A DNA stretch of 64,000 nt from Candidatus Bathyarchaeota archaeon (GTDB lineage: Archaea; Thermoproteota; Bathyarchaeia; Bathyarchaeales; Bathyarchaeaceae), in NCBI GenBank assembly GCA_963697165.1, contig CAVOMX010000012.1, positions 32,001 to 96,000 on the forward strand. Reading direction: 5' to 3'. Under the pieces are notes generated by a model. That model was given only the letters and a program-made list of their open reading frames with translations. It did no database searches and was not told where the DNA came from. Every line of letters starts with the position of its first letter. Position 1 is the first letter of the stretch. A program made the position numbers and the translations under genes. This document shows, in pieces, positions 16,377 through 25,331 of the stretch.

Positions 16377-17277
16377 ATGTCAGCCGTTAGTATTGCTGTG
16401 CGAGCCTTTCGTAAACTCGAACCTAGAAGACCTTCAGTTTACTGGAAGCCATAGAGCAGCAGATGAGAAATTATGAGTATGCACCAAAAGATGCAATCCA
16501 AAAGCAATCAGAGCTTCCGCTTTCAGAAATAGATTATCGATTACCGAATCTCACAAAAAATCGGCTATTGAAGGGTTGGCAAGGAAAATATCTTGGCTAC
16601 AGCCTCACAACAGCAGGATACGACACCCTAGCCATAAACGCCCTAGTGAAAGCAGACATAATCGAAGCCTTCGGCAAACCCCTAGGAGTAGGAAAAGAAT
16701 CAGACGTCTACAACGCCCTTGGACCAGATGAAAAGCAGTTGGCACTTAAATTCCATCGTATAGGCAGAACCAGCTTCAAAAAAACCAAACTCAAACGAAA
16801 CTACACGGTCAAATACAGCTACACTCCCGACTGGAACCACCAATCCAGAATCGCAGCCAAAAAAGAGTACGTTGCCCTGAAGCTGCTGTATGTAAGGGCG
16901 TGGCGGTTCCTGAGCCAATCAAACAGACCCGACACGTCTTGGTCATGAGCATGATAGAAGGCGCAGAGCTTTACCATTACCCCAAACTGCCAGACGCACA
17001 GACCGTCCTAAACGAGATACTTTTCAACATAAGAAAGACTTACCAAGACGTCAACATGATACATGGAGACCTCAGCCCATACAACATCATACTTCAGCCA
17101 AACATGCATATTCTCATAATCGACTGGCCACAAAACGTCTCCACAAAGCACCCAAACGCAAAGGAACTGCTAGAACGAGACATACAAAATGTTCTAACCT
17201 TTTTCCAAAGAAAATATGGACTAGAAACCAAGCTGCAAGATGCCCTAACTTACGTCACAGAAGATTCCGAAAACTAA
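16377..17277 (+). CDS. rio2: RIO2-type serine kinase (split by frameshifts)
   Basis: N-terminal wHTH with GYSLTTAGYD, GVGKESDVY, KFHRIGRTSF, IHGDLSPYNI, IIDWPQ. Confidence 0.92.
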
Positions 17278-20197: not shown

Positions 20198-20473
20198 TTA
20201 CTCAAGCCGTTTGATTATGTGATAGCCGAACTGGGTTTTCACTATTCCAGAGATTTGTCCTTTCTCGAGAGCGAAGGCGACTTGTTCGAATTCCTTCACC
20301 ATCTGTCCGCGACCAAAGGTTCCGAGGTCTCCGCCGCGCTTTTTGGATGGACAGAGCGAAACATCTTTGGCTATGGCTGAAAAGTTTTCTCCCTTCTTTA
20401 ACCGTTCTAAAACTGTGTTTACTTCTTTCTCAGTTTTCACGAGGATATGTGCACAATGAACTTTATTTGACAT
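20198..20473 (-). CDS. ppiC: Parvulin-type peptidyl-prolyl isomerase
   Basis: HILV, S.CPS...GGDLG.F..GQMV..FE, TQFGYHII. Confidence 0.95.
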   Translation of the reverse strand: MSNKVHCAHILVKTEKEVNTVLERLKKGENFSAIAKDVSLCPSKKRGGDLGTFGRGQMVKEFEQVAFALEKGQISGIVKTQFGYHIIKRLE

Positions 20474-20563
20474 AAGAAAAGAATAACCAAAAACGGTTTA
20501 TAACAGTTATTGCGTCCAAACATCAAGGACACCCCAGATTATGTGATGAAACTTGTTAGTCAG

Positions 20564-20573
20564 GCTTAAATAC
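20564..20573 (+). promoter_or_regulatory. Putative TATA box for the riboswitch-thiT transcript
   Basis: GCTTAAATAC about 25-30 nt upstream of the aptamer 5' end. Confidence 0.55.
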
Positions 20574-20598
20574 AAAGAATGGGCTCATTTACTTTAAG

Positions 20599-20698
20599 GT
20601 GTATGGGGAGCTGGGTTAACCCGGCTGAGAGGACAACTGGACTGTTGTCGACCCTAAGAACCTGATCCAGGTAATGCTGGCGGAGGGAAAGAAATGAC
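20599..20698 (+). ncRNA. TPP (THI-box) riboswitch
   Basis: GGGGAGC-[CTGGG ttaa CCCGG]-CTGAGA-[GACAAC/GTTGTC stem]-ACCC-AGAACCTGATCCAGGTAATGCTGGCGGAGGGA matches the TPP consensus and lies immediately 5' of thiT. Confidence 0.95.
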
Positions 20699-21218
20699 AG
20701 AAACTAAACATGGGTTTTCGACAAAAATATTAGCAGAAACAGTTACGTTTGTGGCTCTTGCCACAGTTTTAAGTTACATCAAACTTTTCAGTCTACCACA
20801 AGGAGGCTCCGTAACCGCGGCGTCGATGGTGCCGATTCTTTGGTTGGCGCTGCGAAGAGGACCAAAAGTGGGGCTGTTCGCGGCTACAGTCTATGGCGTA
20901 GTCCAGTTTGCGTTTGGACCCTACATTTTTCATCCCGCACAGGTGCTGCTCGATTATCCAATTGCTTTTGGGTTGTTGGGAATTGCGGGATTCTTCCAGA
21001 ATCGTTCCTTTTTAGGCGCAAGCTTGGGCATAATTGGGCGATTTGTTGCCCACTTCCTTTCGGGCATAATCTTTTTTGCCAGTTACGCGCCTGAGGGAAT
21101 GAATCCTGCAATCTACTCTACGGTATACAATGGAGGCTATCTGCTGGTTGAGCTTGTGATAAGCCTCTACGTCATTTACTTACTACAGGCCAGTAAAGCG
21201 TTGAAAATCTACATGTAA
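20694..21218 (+). CDS. thiT: ECF transporter S component, thiamine ThiT
   Basis: LPQGGSVT, RRGPKVG, HPAQVLLDYP.AF, HFLSGIIFF..YAP, YS.VYNG.Y. Confidence 0.93.
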   Translation: MTETKHGFSTKILAETVTFVALATVLSYIKLFSLPQGGSVTAASMVPILWLALRRGPKVGLFAATVYGVVQFAFGPYIFHPAQVLLDYPIAFGLLGIAGFFQNRSFLGASLGIIGRFVAHFLSGIIFFASYAPEGMNPAIYSTVYNGGYLLVELVISLYVIYLLQASKALKIYM

Positions 21219-21267: not shown

Positions 21268-22110
21268 TCAGTTCCTTTTTAGGAATCCTTCTAACCCCTT
21301 GGGGTTTCTCCTACTTCTTTTAATAGCAATTTTTTCTCCTACCCGAAGTCTCATTCCGTCAAAAGCTGCTACCGCTGGAACTCCAGTTGTGTCTTCGATT
21401 ATTTTTATTTCGTATGCGGGTCCGCTGAAGAGCATTTTCATTCCGAAGTGTGTGGCTATAACCATCTCAGGCTTGACGGTGTCAACGATTTTGGCGGCTT
21501 CTTTTGGCGTCATATGTCCCGCCCATGGGCTTCCTAGGGGTCTCATTACAGAAAGGATGAGGATTCTAACTCCTATATATTGTTCTTCGATGCCTTCAAA
21601 ATATTCGGTGTCGGCGGTGTATCCGATGTCGCCGACCTCAGGGATTTTGAACCTAAAACCTACAGTTTCAGGGTCAGAGTGCATAGTTTTTGTGGCAACT
21701 ATTTTGGTGTTGCCGACTTTGAAGTTGACGCCGGGTTTCAATATTATTGCCTTTTCTAACATGTTCTGGTGGTATGTGGAGATTGCGGGTCCAGTTTCTT
21801 GGTCTCCGATTAGGATGTTTGGGGGCGCGGCTACGATTCCTCTTTTCTTAAGCATGCCTTTGGTCATGGCTTCAACTAGAATCTCCGCGTTAGTGTAATG
21901 GTCGGGGTGTCTATGAGAAACAAGTAATGCCCTGATTTTTTGGGGAGACAACCCTGCTTCTAGCGAGTATATGAGGGCGCCTGGACCAGGGTCAACGTGA
22001 ATGTTAAAGTTCTGGGAGATGAGGCGTATTCCTCCTGTTCTTCGTTTCTGTGTTATGGTGGCGAATCTTCCGCCTCCTGTTCCCAAAAATACCAGTTCAA
22101 CTTCGTCCAT
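21268..22110 (-). CDS. MBL-fold metallohydrolase
   Basis: FLGTGGGRF, VDPGPG, SHRHPDH, YTADT, THFG. Confidence 0.9.
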   Translation of the reverse strand: MDEVELVFLGTGGGRFATITQKRRTGGIRLISQNFNIHVDPGPGALIYSLEAGLSPQKIRALLVSHRHPDHYTNAEILVEAMTKGMLKKRGIVAAPPNILIGDQETGPAISTYHQNMLEKAIILKPGVNFKVGNTKIVATKTMHSDPETVGFRFKIPEVGDIGYTADTEYFEGIEEQYIGVRILILSVMRPLGSPWAGHMTPKEAAKIVDTVKPEMVIATHFGMKMLFSGPAYEIKIIEDTTGVPAVAAFDGMRLRVGEKIAIKRSRRNPKGLEGFLKRN

Positions 22111-22982: not shown

Positions 22983-23088
22983 GCGGCGGTAGCGAAGCCA
23001 GGTCAAACGCGGAGGACTCAAGATCAGCGTTTGATGAGCTATCCTTTCCCATAGGGGTTCGCAGGTTCGATTCCTGCCCGCCGCACCA
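22983..23088 (+). tRNA. tRNA-Leu(CAA) with an 18-nt intron at 37/38 (23023-23040) and encoded CCA
   Basis: Acceptor stem GCGGCGG/CCGCCGC, anticodon stem GAGGA/TCCTT with CT-CAA-G, long variable arm, GGTTCGATTCC T-arm. Canonical BHB: CTCA/TGAG helix with AGA and CTA bulges. Confidence 0.95.
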
Positions 23089-23937: not shown

Positions 23938-25331
23938 GTGACAATTGGGTTGCTGAAGAAAACCAAAATCGTGTGCACGATTGGTCCCGCCAGTCTAGAG
24001 TCTGAGACATTGGAAAGGATGTTTCAGGCTGGCATGAACTGTGTTAGAATAAACACTGCATACGGAGACTTTGACCGTTACAGGCAGGTTGTGGACAATG
24101 TTCGAGAAGTAGCTGACATGCCTGTTATGGTTGATTTGAAGGGTCCAGAAATCAGGATTCGAACAGACAAAGAACATGTCGTCAAGAAGGGCGAGGTGCT
24201 TGAGGCGGGCTTCAATGGTGAGGCAATCAGCTTTAATCACAACTTCATTGACCATATGAATGTTGGCGATGTGATTTTCATTGATAACGGCAGAATCAGA
24301 ACATTCTGTTATCGAAAAGGCTGATGGTTCATTGCGTCTGCTTGTAGAGAACGGCGGGGTAGTATCTGATGGCAAAGGCGTCAACGTTCCAAACAAACAA
24401 CTTACAGTTCCAACCCTATCACAACGGGACCTGAAGATCATCGACTTTGCAAAAGAGCATGAAGTAGAGTTTTTGGCTCTCTCATTTACAAGAAACGCCA
24501 AAGACGTAGCAAACCTCAAGTCAGCGGCTGAAGGACTTCAAGGGGGCAGTGATTGCTAAGATCGAAAACTTTGAGGGAATCACAAACTTCAAGGAGATTC
24601 TAAACGCATCAGAAGCAATCATGGTTGCAAGAGGCGACTTGGGCGTCGAAATCGAGCCAGAACGTGTTCCTCTAGTCCAGAAGTCTCTGGTTCGCAGTGT
24701 GCAATCAGGCAGGAAAAACTGTTGTGACAGCCACGGAGATGCTGGAATCCATGATGCATCAGCCTAACCCAACAAGAGCCGAAGTCAGCGACGTGGCAAA
24801 CGCGATACTGGACGGAACCGACGCAACCATGCTTTCTGGAGAAACAGCGGTTGGCGAGTTTCCGGTCGAGTCTGTGGCTATGATGACTCGTATAGCCTTG
24901 GAGGTGGAAAAGGCGACAAAAAGCAGCGTTAAAGACAGGGGATTTGTTAACATCTCGGATACTGTAAGCTGGTCTATTCAGAGGATTTGCCAGAGCATGC
25001 CCTTGACCAAGATTGTTACATTAACTAGGTCAGGTTACACGGCGAAGATGATTTCCCGTTTCAAGATTCGCAGATCAGATAATCGCGGTTACGTCCAAGC
25101 CCGATGGTAAAGAAGCAGCTGGAGCTGGTTTATGGCGTAGTTCCAGTGCATTATGATTACCGCAAAGAAGAAGACAGACTACTGTCTGTTGCATGTATGC
25201 TGTATTCCATGAAGTTGCTAAACATCGAGGACTTGGTGCTCTTCACAGCCGCTTTTAGAACAAAAATGAAACATGCAAGCAACCTCATCGAAATCCACAC
25301 ACTCAAAGAACTCCTAGACCTAAAAAAATAG
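23938..25331 (+). CDS. pyk: Pyruvate kinase (split by several frameshifts)
   Basis: [66 protein letters not shown] across five consecutive ORF pieces. Confidence 0.93.

Follow-up and report, generated by a model that had tools for sequence, protein, structure and literature searches.

The thiT gene of the Bathyarchaeia genome studied here is probably controlled by a TPP-sensing translational OFF switch, which would keep production of the thiamine importer in check in an organism that is probably auxotrophic for thiamine. All coordinates refer to the window, i.e. the whole 64-kb stretch of DNA analysed (CAVOMX010000012.1, 32,001-96,000, forward strand), unless another locus is named. In the proposed mechanism, transcription would begin approximately 9 nt before helix P2. 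Without TPP and with no P1 to close the junction, the 3-bp helix P4 would be unstable, and the 30S subunit could reach the GGAGG sequence, permitting ThiT to be made and to pair up with a shared EcfA-A'-T module encoded elsewhere. In the presence of TPP, the ligand would bridge the two sensor arms, lock CCU onto AGG and block initiation. Docking of the two arms by TPP is likely to be the event that locks P4 over the Shine-Dalgarno (SD) site.

The assignment to the TPP riboswitch class is based on a significant Rfam match, as expected from an earlier sequence-only reading of this DNA. RF00059 scored 62.5 bits (gathering score 54.3; E 7.1e-10), the match spans the whole model (positions 1-105), and it is the sole RF00059 match in the genome, which is 81% complete. 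The aptamer shows the CUGAGA core and the ACCUGA...GCG-N-AGGGA arm, with core columns that are invariant or nearly so over 44 sequences. The locus had been described as a complete THI-box; all motifs listed for it were found in their places, but "complete" was too strong, since P1 does not form across the relatives, and four of the pairs flagged as non-standard in the Rfam alignment fall in or beside P1. The GACAAC/GUUGUC stem had been regarded as an extra element, but represents the ordinary optional P3a, which is reported for 552 of the 907 TPP sequences counted in PMC2258182.

Table 1. Features of the riboswitch-thiT locus and its neighbours, and HTH-like ThiN proteins from other loci (positions in the window unless a locus is given).
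Feature	Position	Strand	Remark
Predicted TATA box (riboswitch-thiT transcript), TTAAATA	20566..20572	+	Sequence; predicted position
RF00059 TPP riboswitch match	20594..20705	+	Conserved core 20605-20688
Predicted 5' leader	20596..20604	+	Start ~20596 from a ~23-nt TATA-to-start distance (PMC4247193)
AGGU of the proposed ON helix	20597-20600	+	Partner ACCU 20660-20663; minimum-energy fold
Pyrimidine-sensor arm	20605..20654	+	P2, P3, CUGAGA, P3a
P2	20605-20607/20652-20654	+	Pyrimidine-sensor arm
P3	20610-20615/20620-20625	+	Pyrimidine-sensor arm
CUGAGA core	20625-20630	+	Sequence
P3a, GACAAC/GUUGUC	20632-20637/20644-20649	+	Pyrimidine-sensor arm
Pyrophosphate-sensor arm	20660..20688	+	P4 and P5
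ACCUGAUC core	20660-20667	+	Sequence
P4, CCU with AGG	20661-20663/20684-20686	+	Pyrophosphate-sensor arm
P5	20667-20670/20677-20680	+	Pyrophosphate-sensor arm
Shine-Dalgarno GGAGG(GA) within the aptamer	20682..20688	+	AGG 20684-20686 forms the P4 3' strand
thiT, ECF thiamine S component, 174 aa	20694..21218	+	Single-gene unit; TIGR02357, PF09515
ppiC, parvulin, divergent	20198..20473	-	TATA-like box at 20497-20503, ATG 30 nt further on
Metallo-beta-lactamase-fold (MBL) gene, convergent	21268..22110	-	thiT neighbour
HTH-like + ThiN proteins	L302:2768-3730, L303:3088-4047, L304:1114-1965, L305:3642-4604, L308:1377-2402, L309:1208-2146

From these positions we infer that the 3' core of the aptamer is the ribosome-binding site of thiT. 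Its GGAGGGA had been read as SD-like, and both its location ahead of the ATG and its complementarity to 16S rRNA agree with this view. GGAGG pairs with the 3' end of the genome's own 16S rRNA at -10.6 kcal/mol, and only 10.8% of 223 genes of the same genome reach an SD duplex of -8.5 kcal/mol. The last G of the thiT GGAGG is situated at -8, within the genome peak at -8 to -11 that comprises 54 of 64 genomic GGAGG sites in a search confined to the vicinity of starts and that is also seen for GAGG among 223 unambiguous starts. The locus thereby resembles the "direct translation attenuators" described in PMC2258182, which have the same aptamer, a purine-rich 3' core replacing the ribosome-binding site, and a start codon not more than 15 nt from the core (5 nt in the window). 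The same source cautions that an SD-like 3' end need not be under ligand control in every aptamer.

The arrangement is widespread in the class. The set comprised 154 distinct class aptamers for which a gene could be identified downstream, among them six genus loci that the search pattern had missed and that were added by hand; it excluded three class loci that gave no hit downstream, as well as at least four in which the pattern missed the aptamer. A start codon follows the aptamer directly at 104 of these 154 loci (96 canonical, 8 near-cognate assigned by hand), and some of the non-direct loci may be frameshifted direct ones. The spacer between AGGGA and the start measures 4-9 nt at 99 and 5-8 nt at 85 of the 104 direct loci, hence the last G of GGAGG comes to lie at -8 to -11, the genomic SD position. 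Since every TPP aptamer conserves AGGGA, the SD match is in part to be expected anyway. GGAGG is completed by a variable base, which is a G at 91 of 104 direct versus 23 of 50 other loci, which are not phylogenetically independent; within family f24 the ratio is 21/23 versus 10/18, and among Bacillota thiT switches 4/15 carry this G. It is not required, as indicated by the direct loci of families f34 (0/3), f14 (0/2) and f25 (1/3).

No intrinsic terminator was found between the aptamer and the start codon, and with the aptamer 3' end itself forming the SD site, the earlier statement that there is no separate expression platform is upheld. Any effect at the RNA level would thus have to be factor-dependent. 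It seems unlikely to us that the TPP-bound aptamer excludes ribosomes but acts mainly at the RNA level, through early cleavage or termination of the transcript left untranslated (archaeal aCPSF1/FttA-type termination or decay). Ribosome exclusion at thiM and thiC of E. coli does come with a second layer of control (PMC10578472); however, the strict SD-type spacing points to initiation as the selected step.

Some loci have near-cognate codons at the SD-spaced position in frame with thiT, namely ACG in L074, L137, L145, L149, L170 and L196, ATA in L010 and L142, and GTA in L011; at L074, L137, L010 and L011 no canonical start exists ahead of the first membrane helix. Non-AUG initiation that weakens ThiT output is one possible explanation, decay is another.

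The comparison with related genomes that the sequence-only reading had proposed bears out covariation of P3, P3a and P5, and not of P1. Using 44 sequences out of 99 alignment-ready direct loci, 98.3% of the cells in P2, P3, P3a, P4 and P5 are paired, a value reached by none of 500 shuffles. Two-sided, compensatory changes were detected at nine pairs (3/6 in P3, 5/6 in P3a, and one P5 pair). P2 and P4 are invariant in all 44 sequences, hence they are uninformative on covariation, and the ligand-binding cores are likewise unchanged in 44/44. In the canonical Rfam register, P1 is paired in 37.7% of the cells; 56 of 500 shuffles score as high, and slid controls behave alike. A P1-type duplex of -3 kcal/mol or stronger occurs at 13 of 99 direct and 25 of 50 other loci, and at all 15 Bacillota thiT loci (Rfam-based comparison, 15 of 20 loci run), where every duplex is at -3.7 kcal/mol or stronger. 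A genuine P1 is retained in L069, L072 and L097. Collectively, the P1 that closes the three-way junction appears to be missing from the direct aptamers of Bathyarchaeia, and because this defining helix of TPP riboswitches was not found, the thiT switch is classed as a variant TPP riboswitch.

A switch lacking P1 is plausible by analogy, because P1 makes no contact with the ligand and a shortened P1 still permitted repression, with raised output, in E. coli thiB (PMC10578472). Nevertheless, the loss of P1 could weaken ligand binding. In TPP switches of solved structure the three-way junction is closed by P1, and all Bacillota examples checked keep it, hence one might regard the P1-less aptamer as a relic that no longer switches and is kept as a structured leader with a constitutive SD. 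We give this idea very little weight, since a relic would hardly agree with cores that are invariant in 44/44 sequences, helices that covary, an aptamer kept in 23/24 genus genomes and reused before thiT, thiW, thiC, thiDN, permease and binding-protein genes, and a complement to the CUGAGA core at 18/50 non-direct loci.

Regarding the regulated gene, the thiT ORF passes the NCBIfam equivalog ECF_ThiT_YuaJ (TIGR02357) with 143.6 bits against a cut-off of 108.45 as well as Pfam PF09515, and its product matches solved ThiT structures (E ~3e-14). This homology suggests that the protein binds and transports thiamine. The genes ppiC and/or MBL flank thiT at 18 of 18 same-genus loci examined, and the named ThiT loci closest to the window are from Ca. 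Bathyarchaeum. The genome carries an archaeal 16S rRNA gene, LSM and Rio2 genes lie in the region and the GC content is even. The Bathyarchaeia-type host assumed earlier is therefore supported, and a bacterial chimera is rejected on the basis of the 16S rRNA, LSM/Rio2, the even GC and the conserved neighbours. ThiT proteins of about 250 aa were seen in L006, L029 and L135; they match the window protein in two pieces, which suggests an internal duplication or an insert.

Judged from its gene content, the host is likely auxotrophic for thiamine, and the riboswitch is the one regulator evident in it. ThiC, ThiN/ThiR and thiamine pyrophosphokinase gave no match in the 81% complete genome, Thi4 gave only short hits, and thiL is split. 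ThiC was also not found in five further genus genomes, and ThiN neither in five family f1 genomes nor in the genome of L070. An ecfA-ecfA'-ecfT module is located in L277, with no S component among its ORFs of at least 120 aa. As pyrophosphokinase gave no match and thiL is split, we found no recognisable pathway leading from thiamine to TPP; in addition, the junction is altered, with P1 lacking and a G in the variable position of P4. Both observations would fit a switch of the same design that binds thiamine or thiamine monophosphate, or that has an affinity far below that of bacterial TPP switches. Such a change of ligand is nonetheless highly improbable in our view, because the pyrophosphate-arm consensus is intact, and the break in thiL may be an assembly error, since Rio2 is split as well. 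Three genes are split across frames, namely thiL (L285:1052-2040), Rio2 and a third one (window 16463-17277 and 23938-25110 for the latter two), which we take to be a probable pyruvate kinase; these splits are likely indel errors of the assembly. The window also contains a tRNA gene (22983-23085; RF00005, 46.5 bits), whose variable arm is long and whose anticodon loop has an insert.

In another archaeon, initiation occurs approximately 23 nt past the TATA box (PMC4247193), and we infer a similar distance for the window transcript, which would then start about 9 nt before P2. Calibration of this distance within the genome gave no peak among 138 SD-less ORFs; ppiC, with a TATA-like box 30 nt ahead of its ATG, is one case consistent with it. 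Among the 29 family f1 loci that gave a single TATA call, 26 have the box at -35 to -41 relative to P2; in family f24, a TATA-like box is found at -31 to -34 in 18 of 23 direct loci. With a spacing of about 23 nt, the f24 transcripts are predicted to have 1-4 nt before P2, which leaves no room for a P1 strand.

The leader contains AGGU, or GGGU with equal pairing, at 24/32 f1, 9/13 f9 and 0/23 f24 direct loci, the f24 leaders being too short for it. Pairing of the leader to ACCU has a mean of 0.31 versus 0.09 with shuffled leaders over 99 loci, and 0.69 versus 0.00 at the window locus. In the minimum-energy fold of the predicted transcript, AGGU sits on ACCU and the SD is left free. The ON (AGGU-ACCU) and OFF (P4) folds of the window have -30.6 and -30.5 kcal/mol, respectively, and the constrained ensembles differ by 0.3 kcal/mol. 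The same box, leader and aptamer are present at the Ca. Bathyarchaeum tardum locus L070, where a GTG start follows 7 nt on, the riboswitch-thiT cassette being part of the complete genome record of this organism. Based on the folding, we see slightly less than an even chance that the AGGU of the genus leader actively holds the ON state on ACCU and so replaces the 5' strand of P1. Against such a leader helix, ACCU is invariant, so covariation would be invisible, and AGGU is absent at 23/23 f24 and 8/32 f1 loci. The leader AGGU may also be a remnant of an ancestral P1 strand.

The sequence-only reading had further suggested that a weak P1, GUGUAU/AUGAC, forms upon TPP binding and buries the start codon too, which is most improbable: the window does allow five pairs interrupted by a bulge, several genus members can form similar weak duplexes of -1.2 to -2.6 kcal/mol and TPP indirectly stabilises P1 in E. 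coli (PMC10578472), but the helix shifts the energy from -30.5 to -27.7 kcal/mol (a cost of ~2.8), is no better than shuffles over 32 family-level (f1) loci (mean -0.8 versus -0.5 kcal/mol), lies out of the junction register, shows no covariation and would be impossible with a leader of 1-4 nt.

Other architectures exist beside the direct one. A second type has UUCUCAG(C) just after the aptamer, and another SD with its start codon 30-65 nt further along (L104, L131, L151, L157-L159, L161, L162, L166, L168, L174, L179, L186, L190, L192, L199, L202). UCUCAG, which complements the CUGAGA core, occurs within 32 nt of the aptamer at 18 of 50 non-direct versus 1 of 104 direct loci and, in free folding of 17 loci, is found paired to the core in 15; when the aptamer is enforced, the downstream SD becomes less accessible at only 6 of 17 loci of this type. 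Outside the class, the aptamers of family f42 (L214, L216, L217, L220, L226, L230) have a strong P1, precede a binding-protein gene and show a classical anti-SD platform, in which CUCCUUC stands against AAGGAGG and the leader GGCGGUAG against CUACCGCC.

Thirteen class genomes encode a PF10120 protein of ~300-356 aa, and 11 of these 13 have no RF00059 match. In the six proteins checked, the ThiN domain follows an N-terminal part that gave weak HTH hits in four of them; we take this HTH + ThiN layout to be that of ThiR and regard the proteins as ThiR-like. Several of the HTH-like ThiN proteins are encoded beside thi genes. It is a tentative and somewhat doubtful generalisation that Bathyarchaeia possess a naturally P1-less minimal TPP riboswitch of ~85-95 nt from transcription start to ribosome-binding site, in which P4 is the switch helix and lineages tune it by having no leader, by a 5' AGGU invading P4 or by a downstream UUCUCAG invading CUGAGA, and that such RNA control is the main thiamine regulation in Bathyarchaeia, largely alternating with the HTH-ThiN regulator.

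Several elements of the thiT switch are already known from the literature: the class of TPP aptamers, the direct burial of the SD, and the occurrence of TPP switches in Thermoplasmatales. The missing P1, the f24 leaders of predicted 1-4 nt and the genus AGGU/ACCU ON helix would be new. Rodionov (2002) reportedly predicted that the Thermoplasmatales TPP riboswitches bury the SD directly. Like the thiT switch, these are archaeal and precede transporter genes (bioRxiv 10.1101/538918; PMC2258182), and they are described as transcribed together with the downstream gene (bioRxiv 10.1101/538918); they differ in belonging to another phylum and to other transporters. In the T. volcanium and P. torridus rows given in PMC2258182, the 5' two thirds share the GGGGAGC...GCUGAGAGGA-P3a-GACCC layout with the thiT aptamer. 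Direct SD burial in TPP switches is described there mostly for Actinobacteria and Cyanobacteria. The thiT switches of Bacillota, for example RSthiT of Lactococcus lactis (PMC8862789), share the aptamer and the target family with the window, whereas 15/15 have P1 and in 14/15 the first in-frame start is at least 19 nt away. The E. coli thiB switch is also an initiation OFF switch that acts via competing short helices, as described in PMC10578472, yet it uses P1 and a downstream sequestering stem, whereas the thiT switch has no P1 and its proposed competitor lies 5' and attacks P4. The fluoride riboswitch of Thermococcus kodakarensis is likewise natural, archaeal and presumed translational, but of a different class (cited in PMC8241225); according to that source it was in 2021 the only natural archaeal riboswitch tested experimentally.

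A literature search for Bathyarchaeia riboswitches or P1-less TPP aptamers, with key subscription papers outside its scope, found no paper. GARNET ran RF00059 over GTDB genomes according to PMC11621547, and the Bathyarchaeia aptamer sequences probably sit undescribed in public alignments of this kind. The switch is short and makes explicit ON/OFF predictions, and its cassette is present in Ca. B. tardum, which makes ligand control of archaeal initiation testable. If true, a working P1-less TPP aptamer would alter the textbook view of P1 as the switch helix and provide a compact part for archaeal gene control.

Archaea are thought to be sparing with riboswitches, and the sequence-only reading had called them very rare. 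This holds for the literature but not for Bathyarchaeia, in which 93 of 151 genomes (63 of 94 high-quality ones) have the TPP aptamer; the 123 RF00059 matches in these 151 genomes, 114 of them above the cut-off, contrast with the 87 archaeal riboswitches of all classes together that are given for a 2017 census in PMC5473149. Closer to the window, 39 of 61 relatives (window genome included) have an RF00059 match, among them 23 of 24 other genus members. ThiT is present in 73 of the same 151 genomes. Outside the class, the aptamer occurs in 20 of ~131 phylum genomes from four families, before binding-protein or ThiW genes, and ThiT above the cut-off in 2 of ~131. In a midpoint-rooted ThiT tree of 98 rows with a mostly Bacillota bacterial sample, 52 class proteins are separated from 39 bacterial ones by a branch with SH-aLRT 85 (unstarred), the class side including one marine protein, and a FastTree of 275 rows agrees. 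As ThiT is nearly absent elsewhere in the phylum, a single old gain from bacteria in the class is plausible. The earlier suggestion that riboswitch and thiT were acquired jointly from bacteria finds no support, because this aptamer type also precedes other genes in four families lacking ThiT. Nor do the ThiT tree and the wider phylum range of the aptamer support a recent joint transfer. Given this range and the likeness to the visible part of the Thermoplasmatales rows, an arrival of the aptamer with thiT should not be assumed.

The genes behind the class aptamers are thiT, thiW, thiC, thiDN, permease and binding-protein genes, and all main targets are thiamine genes. At nine thiT loci (L056, L057, L058, L124, L143, L152, L306, L307, L085) there was no RF00059 match even at E 0.5. 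The aptamers of L015, L177, L212 and L099 precede genes for a MinD/ParA-like ATPase, a DUF2284 protein, a PadR-like protein and an unknown protein, none of them obviously linked to thiamine; these are perhaps rearranged or orphaned copies. Furthermore, three S-component-like families that bear no thiamine label and have weak or no ECF Pfam hits were found behind TPP aptamers (L017, L160, L171, L189, L201, L210, L211; the L104 type; the L158 type), and because of this placement they probably carry thiamine or its precursors. Finally, a P-loop protein of ~190 aa with no Pfam family above the cut-off is encoded behind TPP aptamers or between thiDN and thiW (L178, L185, L206, L208, L209; L302:4272-4832; L303:1980-2537; L305:244-798) and is likely the product of an unassigned thiamine-salvage gene.
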